A stretch of DNA of 43,630 nucleotides from the sequence record MK562503. One strand, written 5' to 3'. Source of the DNA: Shigella phage Buco. Position numbers and translations under genes: made by a program. Below are positions 3,245 through 25,837 of the stretch, one piece after another. Under the pieces are notes generated by a model. That model did no database searches, was not told where the DNA came from, and was given only the letters and a program-made list of their open reading frames with translations. Each line of letters opens with the position of its first letter. Position 1 is the stretch's first letter.

Positions 3245-4961
3245 GCCAGCGTATATCCTCCCCGGGCGAACTATAATCAAAGAGATACTCAACAACCACA
3301 AACAAGAAGAGGTGAAACCAATGCAACTTGAAATTAATGCTAACGCAATCTCTATGTCACTGGTTACCGGTGGCTATCACGATGGGAATGTTTACTACTT
3401 AACTCACGAACTCCCCCTTGAGGAGCTGGCTGATGAGCTGGGCAAGTGGATTAAATCTGAGCACACGCCCGAAGAGGTTATCCTGCGTATGCATCGCACC
3501 TTCTGGTACAGCTACATCGGCCCGGAAATTCTCTTGAGCAGAGACAACCATCCTCGCGGCAGCACAATAGGGCTGCACTGGGAAGATCTAACCGGGGGCA
3601 CGGCCTCAGCAATTCTTACCAAGCTAGGCTGGAAATCAGCTGGTTGGGATCAAGAGATCACTGCTACTAGTCCAGCCGGGCTGGTGCAGGCTGCTCAATC
3701 TCTGCTGCTGGGACATTTTAATCTGGTGCTGCATAAGGATGCGAGTGCTTTTGCTAATGCATTCATTGACGACTACAAGGAGGTAGTCCAAAAAACCGCC
3801 GGGGATATGGGGGTCTACTACAACACAAGCACTGGTCTCTACTCAGTAAAGAAGGTAGATTTAGTTAAGTTGCTTATGAACTTGAACGGGATCTTTGCAA
3901 ACCGGGGTGCAGTGCTGGTTGGCGAAGGCTTCAAAGATGGGAACCCTATGGCTATCCTTGCCCAACCAGTGTTTCGTGATGGGCAGTTGCAGGGCGTGAA
4001 GCTGCAAGAGCAGCGCATGGGGCGCTTCTTGACCAGCATCTTCGGCAACGCGAAAGACTTCCGCCCAGCCATTGATGACCTCAAGGTATACAACAAGAAG
4101 CCCCAGAGCTACCTTTGTGTAACAGAGGAGGAGTGGTATAATGCTTACGAGCAAGGCCCGGGCAGCTGCATGACCGATTATAAGTTTGACTGCTCCCCGG
4201 TGCGCGTCTACGCTACTACATCGCACGGGCTTCCTGATAACGGCCTGCGCCTGTGTATCAACTACACAGGGGAGTTGTTTGGTAAGGGATTCAGGGTGCT
4301 TAATCGCGCCATTGTCAATATTAACACCAAGGAATACGTCCGGGCATACGGTGAAAACGGTGATGCGGTCATGCGCAGCCTGGGTTATGAGCGCGATACT
4401 GGCGCAACCGACGGTGCTATCCTTGCCAAGATTCCGCATCCCCGTAACAACGGTGCGTATCTGATGCCGTATCTGGACGGGTCTGATGATGAAGTTGATG
4501 ACAACGACGATCACTGGGTCATCACATGCAGCGGGGATTATGGCGCTACGGATGCCAACGGATATATCTATGCGGGTGGCCGCTGCTGTGATTGCTGTGA
4601 TGAAAGAGTAGATGAGGATTCACTGACTGAGACAGCAGGTGGGGATGAGGTGTGTGGGGATTGCCTTGCGGAGAACTATGTGGTTCCCTTAGACAGGGAG
4701 GAATACTACCACCGGTGTGATTGCACCCATTCAGAATATGAGGGTGGTTGGGTATATGATAGTGACGTAGTGGATTGCCCAGTGTATGGCTGTGTATATT
4801 ATGGTAATACCATCTTTGCCCAGGGCCAGCGTGTACATGAAGACGCCACTGAGTGGTGCGAGGCGTTAGGTGACCACATCCTGACCGAAGAGGCGGCGGC
4901 CAATCTGGACGAACCTTACTTAGGCAGGGATGAAGAAGATACAGAAGAGGAAGCAGCATAA
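3237..4961 (+). CDS. Large early protein with a Cys-rich, acidic C-terminal region; function unknown
   Basis: In-frame ATG at 3237 overlaps the stop of the previous gene; an alternative start at 3321 has a strong site (gaggtga). C-terminal part carries clustered cysteines (CCDCC, CGDC, CDC, CPVYGC) and an acidic tail. Confidence 0.65.
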   Translation: MDEPAYILPGRTIIKEILNNHKQEEVKPMQLEINANAISMSLVTGGYHDGNVYYLTHELPLEELADELGKWIKSEHTPEEVILRMHRTFWYSYIGPEILLSRDNHPRGSTIGLHWEDLTGGTASAILTKLGWKSAGWDQEITATSPAGLVQAAQSLLLGHFNLVLHKDASAFANAFIDDYKEVVQKTAGDMGVYYNTSTGLYSVKKVDLVKLLMNLNGIFANRGAVLVGEGFKDGNPMAILAQPVFRDGQLQGVKLQEQRMGRFLTSIFGNAKDFRPAIDDLKVYNKKPQSYLCVTEEEWYNAYEQGPGSCMTDYKFDCSPVRVYATTSHGLPDNGLRLCINYTGELFGKGFRVLNRAIVNINTKEYVRAYGENGDAVMRSLGYERDTGATDGAILAKIPHPRNNGAYLMPYLDGSDDEVDDNDDHWVITCSGDYGATDANGYIYAGGRCCDCCDERVDEDSLTETAGGDEVCGDCLAENYVVPLDREEYYHRCDCTHSEYEGGWVYDSDVVDCPVYGCVYYGNTIFAQGQRVHEDATEWCEALGDHILTEEAAANLDEPYLGRDEEDTEEEAA

Positions 4962-5971
4962 TGTTAAACATCAGATTACTCAAGCAGTTACTGGAAATGC
5001 ACCGCCCGAGCTACGACTCGAATGCGTGGTTGCACGAGTTCCTGGACCCGCGTTTGCCAGCGGGTGCACAGAAGGTGCAGGACGATTACGGGAACGTGTT
5101 CGTTCTGGTGGGGGATAGCGAGCAAAGCGACGTGGCCTTTACCTGCCACACCGACACAGTGGCGCGCCGCAGTAGCCAGCCCCCGAAGGTGAAGATGTCT
5201 ACGTCCGGTATCATGTACGTCGGCAACCCTGACGTAGCTGACTGCCTCGGGGCTGATGATGCAGCGGGTATTTACCTGATGCTGGAGATGCTGGAGCACG
5301 GCGTGCATGGCCGTTACTGTTTCTTCCGGGATGAAGAAGTAGGCTGTGAAGGCAGTGGCTGGTCCGCAGCTGACAAGACCGGGTTCTGGACCGGGGTCAA
5401 AGCAATGATTAGTTTCGACCGCCGGGGTGATGGCATCATCACGAGCCAGCGCTTCCAGGAGTGCTGCTCCCACACCTTCGCACTGGAACTGGCCGAGCGC
5501 CTGGGCCGTACACCTGCACATCTTCAATCCGGTATCTACACGGACTCAGCGGAATTCATGGGTATCATCCCTGAGTGCACCAACATCGGGGTGGGTTATA
5601 AGTACGAGCACACCCCGGACGAGATTCTGGACATCGACATCCTGAGCTCGTTGCTGGAGCGCGTACTGGCTCCTGGTACATTCGCGAACCTGCCGATTGT
5701 ACGTGACCCGGCCCAGTCCCCTGCCAACCGTATCACTTCGTTGAGTGACTGGATGCAAGCAGCTCCGGTAGACGAGGACCCACTGCTGCTGGCCCGCTTC
5801 CGGGAATTGTCACAGCTGGGTATGCCGGAACTGGCACAGTGGGTAGTATCAAACCCGGAGGCGGCAGCGCAGTACATTGCAATTTACTCCGACTACGGAT
5901 TCAAATCAGAGCTGATTGAAGTAGGCACCAAGGTTGTGAAGGACTGGGGCGGCTTTGACAGCATGTTCTAA
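4961..5971 (+). CDS. Zn-dependent hydrolase-fold protein (M20/M28/M42 peptidase-like)
   Basis: Ordered motifs CHTDTV (about 5146), GADDAAG (about 5250), RDEEVG (about 5326) and a later His match the metal-ligand order of co-catalytic zinc peptidases. Start overlaps the upstream stop (TAATG). Confidence 0.6.
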   Translation: MLNIRLLKQLLEMHRPSYDSNAWLHEFLDPRLPAGAQKVQDDYGNVFVLVGDSEQSDVAFTCHTDTVARRSSQPPKVKMSTSGIMYVGNPDVADCLGADDAAGIYLMLEMLEHGVHGRYCFFRDEEVGCEGSGWSAADKTGFWTGVKAMISFDRRGDGIITSQRFQECCSHTFALELAERLGRTPAHLQSGIYTDSAEFMGIIPECTNIGVGYKYEHTPDEILDIDILSSLLERVLAPGTFANLPIVRDPAQSPANRITSLSDWMQAAPVDEDPLLLARFRELSQLGMPELAQWVVSNPEAAAQYIAIYSDYGFKSELIEVGTKVVKDWGGFDSMF

Positions 5972-7910: not shown

Positions 7911-9194
7911 TTGGACTATATCGTAGTTAAGGCCATGTGTACCCGGAAGATATGGCACAGGCTGCGAGAGCAGATACCATCCAGTATGCTGGCACCAGAC
8001 ACGGTGTCTCTGCTGGGCTGGGTGGACCTGTACTGGTCAACGTACCAGGAGCATGCTGAGGTACACGCTGACGCATTCGAGAGCATGCTGAACCTCCGGG
8101 CCGGGGCAGCGCCGAAGGAGCAGATGGATATCCTGCGGCACATGTTCCGAACGGTGCAGCAGGTGCCAGATGATTCAGTGGTGGGTGTAGTACGCACCCT
8201 GAATGAGCTGGCCTACAGTGGGGAGGTGGCGGCGCTAACCCGTAGCTATCAGGACGGGGAGGAAGTAGACTTCATTGCGGAGATGAAGCGGCTTAACCGG
8301 AAGTACGGTGATGGCGCAGCAGTGCAAGACTCCTTGATGGAGTGGGAGTCTGGTTCAGTAGATGATATACTGGCGCAGACAGATGAATCAGGCGGGTTAA
8401 AGCTGAACGTGTTCGGCCAAACCCAGAGGAACATACGAGGTGCTAGAGGTGGTGACTGTATCGCTGTGGCTGCTCCTGTGGATGCTGGTAAAACTAGTCT
8501 CCTCGCTAGTATTGTTGTGGGTTTTGCTGAGCAGATGCAGCAACAGCCCGAGGTCTACGGAAGCCGCCCAATACTATGGCTGGTCAACGAATCCCTTGCG
8601 GCTCGCACTGTGCCGCGTATTTACCAAGCTGCAACGCACTGGACTCTACAGGAGATTCGAGAGCAGCATCAGCACGGTAAGTTTGCCCCGGCCTACCTTA
8701 ACAAGGTGGGTGCGTATGACCGTATTCGCGTTAAGAATGCGCACAGTCTCACTATGGCACAGATTGCAACCCTGATTGAGGAGATGAACCCTGCGGTGCT
8801 GGTCATCGACATGGTTGCAAACGTCCGGGGAGGAACCATGGAGACTGAGCACCAGAACCTGGAGGCGAAGTGGCAGGAGCTGCGCGTGCTTGGCTGTGAG
8901 CACGACTGCGTAATGCTCGGCACCATGCAGTTGTCTGCGGAGGGGTATGACATGCTGTACCCACCGCTGACCGCTATGAAGCAAAGCAAGATTGGCGTGC
9001 AGGGTGCGCTGGACTTAGCCCTGATGATGGGCCGGTTAGACCCGAGCACTAGGCCAGAGATGGTGAACGTACGCGGCATCAGTACACCTAAGAACAAGAT
9101 GGGCTTGTCTGGGTGCGAGTCGTACCTGCAATTCCAAGTGGACTTTCAGGGTGGGCGTTGTAAATTTGACGAAGGGGTAAGTGCTCATGGCTAA
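7911..9194 (+). CDS. Replicative DNA helicase (DnaB/T7 gp4 helicase-like)
   Basis: Walker A-like AAPVDAGKTS and Walker B-like LVIDMV; TTG start at 7911 after aaagaggag (alternative ATG at 7935). Confidence 0.75.
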   Translation: MDYIVVKAMCTRKIWHRLREQIPSSMLAPDTVSLLGWVDLYWSTYQEHAEVHADAFESMLNLRAGAAPKEQMDILRHMFRTVQQVPDDSVVGVVRTLNELAYSGEVAALTRSYQDGEEVDFIAEMKRLNRKYGDGAAVQDSLMEWESGSVDDILAQTDESGGLKLNVFGQTQRNIRGARGGDCIAVAAPVDAGKTSLLASIVVGFAEQMQQQPEVYGSRPILWLVNESLAARTVPRIYQAATHWTLQEIREQHQHGKFAPAYLNKVGAYDRIRVKNAHSLTMAQIATLIEEMNPAVLVIDMVANVRGGTMETEHQNLEAKWQELRVLGCEHDCVMLGTMQLSAEGYDMLYPPLTAMKQSKIGVQGALDLALMMGRLDPSTRPEMVNVRGISTPKNKMGLSGCESYLQFQVDFQGGRCKFDEGVSAHG

Positions 9195-9512
9195 CAAATT
9201 TAAAGTAGGTGACTTCGTGGTACGTACTGCTGACAACTGGGGGGTTGGTGCGCAAAGGCGACGTGTGGCAGGTCAGTGAGGTGGGGGGTATTCGGTAGCG
9301 GTATCAAACTCAAGGGTGATGCAGAGTGTACGTACGACCCGGCTAATTTCAGGTTGGCATATGACGGGGAACTATGCTCGGTCGTCGGTATGAGCTGGGA
9401 CTATGCGGAAGCACAGCGCCTACAGGACATTGCTAAGGCCGCAGTCAAAGCGTATAACGATTACGTCGGGCGTAAACCTGAAACGGTGTTCTTGAAGCTG
9501 GCTGATTACTAG
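9187..9512 (+). pseudogene. Frame-disrupted small gene (about 107 aa if two G6 tracts are read as G5)
   Basis: ATG at 9187 reads MANKFKVGDFVVRTADNWG, then the frame changes at GGGGGG 9239..9244 and again at GGGGGG 9283..9288. All three frames are protein-like in succession and the last runs to 9512. Confidence 0.45.
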
Positions 9513-9568
9513 GTACTTTTACAGGGCATCTCAGGGTGCCCTGTGTAGGTACATAGTGCGGAGGTTGT

Positions 9569-9727
9569 ATGTTACGAGCAAAAGATTTAACCATCGAGGA
9601 TGCCCAGGTTATTGGGTGGTACAGGGGCAAGCCCAGCTACATAGACCTGGCTAGGCTGACAGCATTTCACCTGGAGAGCTCGCACCTGATTGCTCTCCGG
9701 GCCATCGACAAAGCGCGGAGGGCTTGA
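9569..9727 (+). CDS. Hypothetical protein (52 aa)
   Basis: ATG preceded by gcggaggt; stop overlaps the start of the HNH gene. Confidence 0.45.
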   Translation: MLRAKDLTIEDAQVIGWYRGKPSYIDLARLTAFHLESSHLIALRAIDKARRA

Positions 9728-10161
9728 TGGAAGATTGCATTGACCACGGCCAATTGGGCGGGGTTGGCGGGTACGGAAGAGTGCGCATGGGTGGCCGGGT
9801 TACTGGTGCCCACCGCAGAGCTTATTGTGAGGCTAACGGTGTTTCGTTGGACGATATAAAGGGGAAGGTTGTGCGCCACCTTTGCGACAACCCACGGTGC
9901 ATTAATGCGGAGCATCTCGCCTTAGGCACCGCAAGCGACAACATGCAAGACCGCAACCGCGGAGTTAATAATCTGCTTGGAGAAAGGAACCCATCAGCCA
10001 AGTTAACAGCCTCGGATGTTGTGGCGATTAGGGCGGCATATAAATCAGGAGAGACTCAAGTATCTATAGCGCGCCGCCTGGGTTTACGTCAGGGCTACAT
10101 CTCAAAAATTATAACGGGGAGAATCTGGAATGAGCAGCAGCATTCTAATCACAGATTATGA
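9727..10161 (+). CDS. Free-standing HNH homing endonuclease with C-terminal helix-turn-helix
   Basis: HNH signature RHLCDNPRCINAEHLALGTASDNMQD, then a DNA-binding-like helical region (SAKLTASDVVAIRAAYKSGETQVSIARRLG). Confidence 0.75.
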   Translation: MEDCIDHGQLGGVGGYGRVRMGGRVTGAHRRAYCEANGVSLDDIKGKVVRHLCDNPRCINAEHLALGTASDNMQDRNRGVNNLLGERNPSAKLTASDVVAIRAAYKSGETQVSIARRLGLRQGYISKIITGRIWNEQQHSNHRL

Positions 10162-12505
10162 AACAGAAAATCATCCATACTATGGAGGGGTAGCTTCCCC
10201 ATACTGTCCTGACAATTACATCGTAGAATCCGCTTGGCGTATTGACCGCACAAATGATGATGGTACGGTCAACGTCGGGGACGTTGGGAGCGTTCGCTAC
10301 AATAGTCGTGAACAGTTCCTCGCTGCACCACCCTCTGAGTGGCTACCGATACCAAGCGATTGCTGGTTAATAGTGGCCCATAACGCGGCTTACGAAATCA
10401 GTTGGTTTTTATCCTTTGCCCGTAAAGAATTTGAGGACTTCTTAAAGAGGGGTGGGCGTGTCTTTGACACAATGCACGGAGAGTACATTGCCACGGACTT
10501 CCAGAGTATGTATCCGAGCTTGGATGAGACGGCTCCTAAGTATGGTGGTACGCACAAGGTAGACGGGGTAAAGATTCTGTGGGAACAGGGTGTGCTCACC
10601 TCGCAGATTGACCCGATGCTATTGCATGACTACCTGGTGAACGGGGATATCCCGAACACCGCGCTGTGCTTCTACGGCCAGTGTGCTATCTTTGCTGAGC
10701 GCGGGCAGATGCAAATGGTCTGGGAGCGTATGGACGCTGTGCTGGCCTGGGCCTACTGTGAGTTCTTCGGATTGTATGTGAACATGCCGGTAGCCCGGGC
10801 GAACCAGGCGGAGCAGGAGCAGCGCATTCAGGAGCTGAAAGAGGAGCTGGGTAAGTACCTGCCGGAACTGCCGGAGACGTTCGAGTTCAACTGGGGTAGT
10901 AACTTCCATATGTCAGCGCTGGTATACGGCGGACCTATCCGGTACAAGCGCAAGGTCCCGTATGACCCGCCGCAGTATGTAAAAGCCGACTATTATAAGC
11001 TCAATAACGGAGAGCTTATAGAGGTAGATGATTGGGACATAGAGGCGTTGGATACTCGGCTAGTGCAGGAGGGCCTGTACCGCGAGGTTTATAGGGCAGG
11101 TAAGAACAAGGGTCGGCCTAAAGTCTTCCGCGCCGACACCGAGGAGGAGAAGCTTAAGTGGGACGACGCTATCTACACCTTCCCGGGCATCGTCAAGATA
11201 GCAGAGTTGCCAGAGCACATCCGGGAGAAGTACAGCGACCGTGGCGAGTTCAGAGGGGCCCAGACACTACCCGACGGCAGTCCGATATACAGTACCAGCG
11301 GGGACGCCATGAACGGCCTGGCGGCCCAGGGGCACGCCTTCGCTAAGTTGGTGAACGAGCTGGCCGGGTTAGAGAAAGACACCGGCACCTACTACCTACG
11401 CACGGAGTACAACAAAGATGGCTCAGTCAAGAAAGTGTCCGGAATGCTCCAGTACGTTATCCCTCAGTCAGGAGACGGGAGCGGCATTATCCATCACAGA
11501 CTCAACACTTGCAGCACTGTCACTGGACGTCTCTCTGCTTCTAACCCAAATCTCCAGAACCTCCCACGAGACGGCACGAGTCGAGTTAAACAAATGTTTA
11601 CTAGCCGTTTCGGCGACGAGGGGCGGATTACAGAAGTCGACTACTCGGCTCTTGAAGTTGTTATGTCCTGTGTGCACACCGGGGACCTCAAGCTCCTAGG
11701 TCTGCTGCTGGATGGTACGGACATGCACTGTTACCGGTTAGCCTTTAAGGAGGGCAAGACCTATGATGAAGTGTACCACCTCTGTCACTCGGATGAGGTT
11801 CCGGTTGAGGTCCATAAACTTTGGAAAGCCATGCGTACCGAGATTAAACCTCCTAGCTTTGCTGCTCAGTACGGCGCTACGGCTAAAGGTATCGCATTCG
11901 CTACCGGATGTACCGTGGAGTATGCCCAGTCATTCCTTGATAATGAAGCCGCACTATTCCCTACCACCATTGGCTTTCGTGATGTAGTCCGGGAGGAAGT
12001 AGAGCGGACCGGGGCAGAGGGGCCAATGTACCGAGAACAGGGTGATGATGGGCAGTGGAGACTGTACCGCATCGGGCACTGGCGTAGCCCCGCCGGTACA
12101 CGCTACAGCTTCCGTCAGAAGCTGCAATGGAAAGCCCCGCCGGGAGGTGGCCGCAAGGTTCAGGTAATGGACTACAAGGGCACAGAGATTGCAAACTACT
12201 GGTGCCAGGGGGAGGCGTTCTTCCTGATGCTGGTGGCCGCCGGGCAGGTTATGCGGGCAATGGTGCAGCGCGACTGGTTCGATGGGCAGGTGTGTCTGAT
12301 TACGAACGTGCACGATGCGTTGTATCTGGACAGCGCCAATCCGGAGGTAGGCCGGGAAGCGAGCCTGTTGGTTAAGCAGTGTATGGAGGATGCGCCTAAA
12401 CGTATCCATGCCCTGTGGCCGGACTACGGCATCATTGGGCAGGTCCCGTTCCCGGCGGAAGCTGAGATGGGTTTGAGCATGTACAGTAAGGAGAAGATTC
12501 AATGA
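10130..12505 (+). CDS. Family A DNA polymerase with N-terminal 3'-5' exonuclease domain
   Basis: 791 aa; exo motif ILITDYETE, then DYSALEVV, RTEIKPPSFAAQYG and VHDALYLD polymerase motifs; ggggaga upstream. Confidence 0.9.
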   Translation: MSSSILITDYETENHPYYGGVASPYCPDNYIVESAWRIDRTNDDGTVNVGDVGSVRYNSREQFLAAPPSEWLPIPSDCWLIVAHNAAYEISWFLSFARKEFEDFLKRGGRVFDTMHGEYIATDFQSMYPSLDETAPKYGGTHKVDGVKILWEQGVLTSQIDPMLLHDYLVNGDIPNTALCFYGQCAIFAERGQMQMVWERMDAVLAWAYCEFFGLYVNMPVARANQAEQEQRIQELKEELGKYLPELPETFEFNWGSNFHMSALVYGGPIRYKRKVPYDPPQYVKADYYKLNNGELIEVDDWDIEALDTRLVQEGLYREVYRAGKNKGRPKVFRADTEEEKLKWDDAIYTFPGIVKIAELPEHIREKYSDRGEFRGAQTLPDGSPIYSTSGDAMNGLAAQGHAFAKLVNELAGLEKDTGTYYLRTEYNKDGSVKKVSGMLQYVIPQSGDGSGIIHHRLNTCSTVTGRLSASNPNLQNLPRDGTSRVKQMFTSRFGDEGRITEVDYSALEVVMSCVHTGDLKLLGLLLDGTDMHCYRLAFKEGKTYDEVYHLCHSDEVPVEVHKLWKAMRTEIKPPSFAAQYGATAKGIAFATGCTVEYAQSFLDNEAALFPTTIGFRDVVREEVERTGAEGPMYREQGDDGQWRLYRIGHWRSPAGTRYSFRQKLQWKAPPGGGRKVQVMDYKGTEIANYWCQGEAFFLMLVAAGQVMRAMVQRDWFDGQVCLITNVHDALYLDSANPEVGREASLLVKQCMEDAPKRIHALWPDYGIIGQVPFPAEAEMGLSMYSKEKIQ

Positions 12506-25799: not shown

Positions 25800-25837
25800 G
25801 GCCCTGTCCATTCGTTTGGGCGGGGCCTTTTTTTTTT
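25800..25837 (+). terminator. Rho-independent terminator downstream of the capsid region
   Basis: 10-bp GC-rich stem (ggccctgtcc / ggacggggcc, two G-U pairs), 8-nt loop, then T10 at 25828..25837. Confidence 0.7.

Follow-up and report, generated by a model that had tools for sequence, protein, structure and literature searches.

An apparent double frameshift, at two G6 tracts, in a helicase-adjacent gene of Shigella phage Buco

The genome record of Shigella phage Buco (MK562503.1, former name HRP29; genus Bucovirus, subfamily Slopekvirinae, order Autographivirales), whose 43,630 bases are the window analysed here, carries directly after its DNA helicase gene a small gene whose reading frame is broken at two tracts of six G residues (G6). 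Judged from sequence comparison, the locus is one ancestral 107-codon gene for the phrog_19629 small protein that stands directly after the helicase in Slopekvirinae podophages, and the feature is an ordinary frameshift lesion, either a recent mutation or a base-calling error, in a known phage gene family. We propose, with modest confidence, that the lesion consists of two Buco-specific +1 insertions of G (G5 to G6) that arose by real and recent replication slippage, and that they have newly turned a rapidly evolving accessory gene into a pseudogene.

The broken gene starts at ATG 9187-9189 and ends at TAG 9510-9512, and its start lies in ATGGCTAA at 9187-9194, an 8-base overlap with the helicase stop. 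The initial annotation had placed the start at 9187, the two tracts at 9239-9244 and 9283-9288 and the end at 9512, all of which are exact. In the deposited sequence the gene falls into three open reading frames (ORFs; Table 1). ORF A consists of 19 native codons followed by 11 that are out of frame (VGAQRRRVAGQ), and its stop overlaps the GTG start of ORF B as GTGA. GenBank and RefSeq give gp15 (the helicase) and gp16 as consecutive accessions and leave the 81 bases 9195-9275 between them unannotated; the gp16 product, a 100% match to ORF B (P0002), reads M-R-W and then continues with native residues 33-107. Deletion of one G from each tract produces a continuous 107-codon ORF, and the earlier proposal that reading both tracts as G5 yields one ORF of about 107 codons is borne out, the product aligning end to end with intact homologues. 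The same frame path is found in codon usage, as measured by a log-odds score that was trained on the 22 long ORFs of the window and is independent of the homologues. Frame 1 is best over 9187-9240 (+16.9), frame 2 over 9244-9285 (+8.2, with -10.7 and -9.4 for the other frames) and frame 0 over 9289-9510 (+32.7). The coding signal thus follows the path 1 to 2 to 0, with each switch at one G6 tract, which backs in all three segments the initial impression of a protein-like reading through successive frames.

The nearest relative found is an ENA/Logan contig (L003), the helicase of which is 95% identical to that of Buco at the amino acid level. Its counterpart of the broken gene, at 5001-5324, encodes a protein (P0001) that is 73% identical to the restored Buco protein over 100% coverage and without a gap, both being 107 amino acids long. 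The DNA of the two is 80% identical over 367 bases, and the alignment contains exactly two 1-base gaps, each beside a tract, and no further indel. At the position of the first Buco tract L003 carries TGGGGAATA, and at that of the second it carries GTTGTGGGCAG. Homology places the first frame shift at ~9241-9262, where the first tract is the sole homopolymer, and the second at ~9281-9293. The short stretch between the tracts, VWQVSEV in Buco, aligns with VYQVSEL of P0001, and many single-chain homologues of ~100-120 amino acids align across both junctions.

Comparison with protein families gave the same picture. The restored protein matches phrog_19629 with an E value of 2.5e-12 (residues 21-104, profile positions 12-102 of 107) and phrog_4317 with an E value of 1.6e-9 (residues 1-64), so that the two PHROG matches together cross both junctions. 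A hidden Markov model (HMM) of the family, made from 25 homologues with Buco left out, assigned 111.8 bits to the G5/G5 reading, 99.8 to a reading with a single -1 slip, 99.3 to ORF A and ORF B joined, and 83.8 to gp16 alone, and the 12-bit gain of G5/G5 is due to the 14 residues between the tracts. Hence, the restored protein matches the profile over most of its length, and a single uninterrupted ORF of ~100-113 codons, as is usual in the family, is seen only in the G5/G5 version and not in the deposited sequence. Members of phrog_19629, such as GAKPeggy_150 of Cronobacter phage Peggy and XQQ56922.1 of Klebsiella phage IME323-1, have in common with Buco the 8-base overlap with the helicase stop, a length of 98-113 amino acids, the KFKVGD motif of the N-terminal barrel and the C-terminal helix WDYAEAxRL...AYNxY..RKP. 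Buco differs in that its copy is interrupted by two +1 frameshifts and in that its variant of the N-terminal domain is common only to the metagenomic relative that encodes P0001.

An AlphaFold2 model of the restored protein, for which the input was a 26-sequence alignment, has a mean predicted local distance difference test score (pLDDT) of 77 and contains a five-stranded barrel at residues 1-57 (pLDDT 80-90) and a helix at residues 72-95. The residues between the tracts form the central strand of this predicted barrel (E26-32, pLDDT about 90). In a Foldseek search of the PDB only generic SH3/KOW barrels were matched (ribosomal L24, the KOW domains of Spt5/NusG, and SH3), with E values of at least 0.02. 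Sequence searches of the restored protein gave nothing significant with Pfam and nothing with PADLOC, and a profile search of the PDB gave only insignificant hints of CarD/TRCF Tudor-like domains (E 0.16-0.9). The fold class predicted by the model is clear, an N-terminal SH3/KOW-like barrel followed by a conserved C-terminal helix.

The relatives examined were Cronobacter phage Peggy, two Drulisvirus phages of Klebsiella and five metagenomic sequences, eight in all. Each has one uninterrupted ORF of 98-113 amino acids at this position, and its start lies within ATGNNTAA, with the 8-base overlap of the helicase stop that is also found in Buco. None of the eight has a run of five or more G in the gene, and the corresponding sites hold G4 or no run. 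The initial annotation had suggested an alignment of orthologues, in which two independent small genes would speak against a broken gene, and the orthologues have one gene. The helicases of the five metagenomic relatives are 89-95% identical to that of Buco and, at that level of helicase identity, the N-terminal domain of the broken gene is only 32-64% identical, while the C-terminal helix is better kept. Peggy is the best match in the phage collection, its DNA being ~81% identical across portions of a 10-kb query and its helicase 89.6% identical to that of Buco in one high-scoring segment pair (HSP), and nothing near-identical was found there. The alignment of the Peggy orthologue to the deposited Buco sequence is limited to residues 42-109, all in one frame. 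Among viral contigs, a peptide-pattern scan for closer relatives returned the Buco sequence alone and two DNA-pattern scans returned Buco and three unrelated loci that encode KFKVGD, and a 20-mer scan of metagenome contigs gave 9 chance matches without homology.

Table 1. Positions of the helicase gene, the broken gene and its parts, and other features of the Buco window and its relatives.
Feature	Position	Strand	Remarks
DNA helicase gene	7911..9194	+	GenBank gp15, QBP32915.1; TAA stop 9192-9194 within ATGGCTAA
Segment 1 of the ancestral gene	9187..9243	+	Codons 1-19 (MANKFKVGDFVVRTADNWG), frame 1; aligns with MGNKFKVGDFVVRTAGDWG of P0001
Segment 2 of the ancestral gene	9245..9286	+	Codons 20-33 (LVRKGDVWQVSEVG), frame 2; central beta strand of the predicted barrel
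Segment 3 of the ancestral gene	9288..9512	+	Codons 34-107 and TAG, frame 0; rest of the predicted barrel and conserved C-terminal helix WDYAEAQRLQDIAKAAVKAYNDYVGRKPETVFLKLADY
First G6 tract	9239..9244	+	Context ctGGGGGGtt; one G in excess of the ancestral frame
Second G6 tract	9283..9288	+	Context gtGGGGGGta; one G in excess
ORF A as deposited	9187..9279	+	Frame 1; 30 codons; ends at TGA 9277-9279; not annotated in GenBank
Middle ORF as deposited	9209..9298	+	Frame 2; includes LVRKGDVWQVSEV
ORF B as deposited	9276..9512	+	Frame 0; 78 amino acids; GTG start; gp16, QBP32916.1 / YP_009821300.1
HNH / His-Me finger ORF, Buco	9724-10161
HNH / His-Me finger ORFs, L003	4601-5008, 6112-6525
HNH / His-Me finger ORF, L023	41-487
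HNH / His-Me finger ORF, L024	3466-3903
Other homopolymer runs of at least five bases in the window			19 G5, 11 C5, 9 A5, one A6, 4 T5, one T10

Of the three explanations that the initial annotation offered for the broken frame, sequencing error and genuine pseudogene both stand and recoding is not supported. By a small margin, we lean to a real and recent event over an artefact. Each of the 37 other genes that have a homologue in Peggy (37/37) is recovered as one unbroken HSP, gene packing elsewhere in Buco is tight with no unexplained coding gaps, and among the genes that could be checked the record contains no other break that is linked to a homopolymer. No general problem of homopolymer calling is visible, because 44 other runs of at least five bases leave comparable genes intact. 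A context-specific, systematic miscall of T-G5-T was also considered, and is rejected as a general rule by the G5 at 3809, which has the same T-G5-T context and is called as G5. The ORF is disrupted relative to intact orthologues, as would be the case in a pseudogene, but further decay in the form of stops, indels or lost conserved residues was not found and the conserved C-terminal motif is intact, and therefore the lesions must be very recent, if they are real. The gene evolves far faster than its helicase neighbor, and such a rate would be expected if it is a dispensable accessory gene. Moreover, real frameshifts are filtered by selection and errors are blind to function, and real ones should therefore pile up only in a dispensable gene. 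Tracts of G5 are the likeliest sites of slippage, and the broken gene had exactly two of them. We propose that the first frameshift would have killed the gene and that the second would then have been neutral, both lesions surviving in one dispensable gene because selection removes frameshifts from essential genes.

The distribution of G runs across the window bears on the same question. The two G6 tracts are the only runs of six or more G or C in all 43,630 bases. Compared with a first-order Markov model, G runs of at least six number 2 where 18.5 +/- 4.6 would be expected and G5 runs number 19 where 44.7 would be expected; among C runs there are 11 C5 and zero C6. The Buco genome thus strongly avoids long G runs, as the observed counts are far under the Markov expectation, and the absence of any other G run of at least six suggests that they pose a genuine hazard of mutation and are purged elsewhere by selection. 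The two tracts are spaced 44 bases apart, for which the chance is ~0.2% by our own arithmetic if two random positions are drawn in 43.6 kb.

Several observations weigh against a real mutation, and most of them also favor the main alternative, which is that the true sequence is G5/G5, that the 107-codon gene is intact and expressed, and that both tracts were over-called in a local patch of poor data, for example where coverage was low, at the end of a contig or in a read used to close a gap. We consider such a sequencing or assembly artefact to be a serious contender, if the less probable of the two. The restored gene is without any decay, which is equally expected of a miscall in a functional gene, and the restored ORF is flawless in having the length of its nearest relative, a codon signal in all three segments, the conserved residues and a confidently predicted fold. 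At this position 8/8 relatives carry an intact copy of the gene, an argument for its being useful. The two lesions are identical in kind (+1 G) and in context (T-G6-T) and, at a distance of 44 bases, both could come from a single read or a single stretch of low quality. Neither reads nor an independent resequencing of Buco were found, and the papers found that mention Buco contain nothing on this locus. The phages of the Buco laboratory were probably sequenced on Illumina, and Illumina consensus indels at G5/G6 are rare. An artefact is also at odds with the lack of other homopolymer trouble in the record noted above, and both errors falling in one 326-base gene would, by our own estimate, be a ~2% event under a uniform error per tract. 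As to the base rate, Antonov et al. (2013; PMC3711429) expected most of the singleton frameshifts that homology validates in genome records to be sequencing errors. The 'singletons' of GeneTack in that study are like the Buco case in that a homology-validated frame transition, unshared by relatives, coincides with short homopolymers and in that the annotation shows the downstream fragment as a short 'hypothetical' gene. Buco differs from them in having two lesions in one 45-base stretch, at the only G or C runs of at least six in the genome.

If the deposited sequence is taken as it stands, translation coupled to termination of the helicase would start at 9187 and ribosomes would make a 30-residue peptide (19 native and 11 out-of-frame residues), stopping at TGA 9277-9279. 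The GTG at 9276, which overlaps the ORF A stop (GTGA), may permit re-initiation to give the 78-residue gp16, a fragment that would be without the first two barrel strands and would retain only the C-terminal helix, and for that reason only this helix could keep activity. Full-length protein would not be made in meaningful amounts. In the protein collection neither the 30-residue nor a 32-residue product was found, and an exact look-up returned only the GenBank entry with the gp15 helicase and gp16. No promoter or terminator for an independent downstream gene was found in 8800-10200.

It is nevertheless conceivable, although we regard it as improbable, that G6/G6 is genuine and the gene is not simply dead, forming instead a helicase-coupled pair of cistrons, by way of the GTGA overlap, from which the conserved C-terminal helix is still made, or supplying a strongly attenuated dose of the full-length protein by low-level +1 slippage on GGG_G at both tracts. 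If this were true, the phage could lower the output of an accessory gene that is costly, perhaps because it sets off a host defence, and yet keep the gene. Less probable again is a functional split gene, in which genuine insertions have been kept for the usefulness of the two-cistron arrangement and the GTGA coupling delivers the C-terminal helix alone by termination-reinitiation after the helicase. In its favor, the four-base GTGA stop/start overlap depends on both insertions, conservation in the family lies in the C-terminal module, which follows several unrelated N-terminal domains, and no decay is seen in the C-terminal region of Buco. However, this arrangement occurs in 0/8 relatives, the 78-residue product would by the structural model bear half a barrel that cannot fold, GTG 9276 has a weak Shine-Dalgarno (SD) sequence (AGG, 3 bases upstream), and a lone stop/start coincidence is not strong evidence. 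The overlap exists because both insertions are present, and we take it to be a coincidence worth noting and not evidence of design.

Programmed frameshifting, the remaining explanation in the initial annotation, is not supported because the tracts are unconserved and there is neither a stimulatory structure nor a slow codon, and we give recoding the lowest probability of all. It would require a genuine G6/G6 that is read by two +1 slips on GGG_G, by an RNA polymerase that drops one G per tract, or by one -1 slip, at the first tract. In its favor, tRNA-Gly on GGG could shift by one base downstream at either tract and still pair perfectly, and two such slips would give the exact G5/G5 protein, and an SD-like GAGGTG directly upstream of the second tract, the sole suggestive element, loosely recalls prfB. 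On the other hand, RNA at 9225-9300 and 9289-9370 folds no better than shuffled sequences (z +0.54 and +0.75), no Rfam match was found in 8500-10500, the codons after the shift sites (GTT and GGT) are common and are neither slow nor stop codons, and two inefficient slips in series would have a negligible yield. It had also been noted initially that the 9187 reading would be joined to the 9276 frame if the ribosome slipped just once, by -1, at the first tract. This is formally true, as frame 0 is open from 9234, but homology disfavors the resulting product, which is 12 bits lower on the family profile, and the reading was rejected both on the HMM (99.8 vs 111.8 bits) and on codon usage between the tracts.

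Known recoding systems differ in the same respects. Like prfB-type +1 frameshifting and the -1 frameshifting of T7-like phages (gene 10A/10B), Buco has a run where a P-site tRNA could re-pair in the new frame, and the SD-like GAGGTG stands just upstream of its second tract. Unlike in those systems, the Buco site is unconserved, its A-site codon is neither slow nor a stop, a stimulatory structure is lacking and two shifts would be needed, and in the relatives one frame encodes the whole product. Phase-variable poly-G tracts, as in Neisseria, Haemophilus, Campylobacter and their phages, are like those of Buco in that the length of a coding G run sets the frame. They typically have at least 8 G and are kept among strains, whereas the Buco tracts are G6 derived from G5 and are absent in relatives, so that a long tract retained among relatives is not seen here (G6 only). 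For phase variation, as for transcriptional slippage, a run of G6 is short. Recoding is by accepted standards recognised from a shift whose position and direction are both conserved (PMC3711429), and 8/8 relatives have neither the tracts nor the frame breaks.

The main value of the result is for curation, in that the annotation of gp16 needs correcting. By homology, gp16 is a C-terminal fragment of the frameshifted 107-codon gene and is not a complete gene, and those who use Buco (HRP29) as the type of Bucovirus should treat the locus as frameshifted. If the lesions are real, as we favor, Buco would be a natural knock-out, and the conserved helicase-adjacent protein would be dispensable for growth on Shigella flexneri. 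Such dispensability would be a small usable fact on the family and does not open a new mechanism.

The family itself is a mosaic. At least four unrelated variants of the N-terminal barrel (32-41% identity) are found among relatives that have 89-95% identical helicases (comparison of loci L001, L003 and L019-L024), and these precede one conserved C-terminal helix (WDYAEAxRL..AK.AV.AYN.Y..RKP). On sequence grounds, the pattern resembles that of a swapped host-interaction or anti-defence module. The orthologue in one of the Klebsiella phages (phi1_146001, L019 1495-1824, XCO36848.1) is named 'nucleotide kinase', as is apparently also the case in Klebsiella phage Hope, and this name is without support from Pfam or from the SH3/KOW-like predicted fold.

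Around the broken gene, ORFs for HNH / His-Me finger endonucleases occupy varied places about the primase-helicase-polymerase block among the relatives (Table 1). That of Buco overlaps the start of the DNA polymerase by 32 bases, and L003 has an extra one between the helicase and the orthologue of the broken gene. The primase-helicase-polymerase region looks like a hot spot for homing endonucleases. A strong hairpin extends from the stop codon of the broken gene (9507-9558; minimum free energy -31.1 kcal/mol, z -4.6), and its core, ACAGGGCATCTCAGGGTGCCCTGT, is kept in L003 (5330-5365). It is not followed by a T run and has no Rfam match, and it may be an RNase III site, a terminator for a phage polymerase or a regulatory element. 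Elsewhere in the window, the sole long homopolymer is the T10 at 25828-25837, which comes after a GC-rich hairpin (GGCCCTGTCC...GGGCGGGGCC; region 25800-25837) and sits just after a small gene downstream of the major capsid gene. From its sequence the hairpin with T10 looks like an intrinsic terminator, and the capsid-gene terminator of T7 holds the same position.

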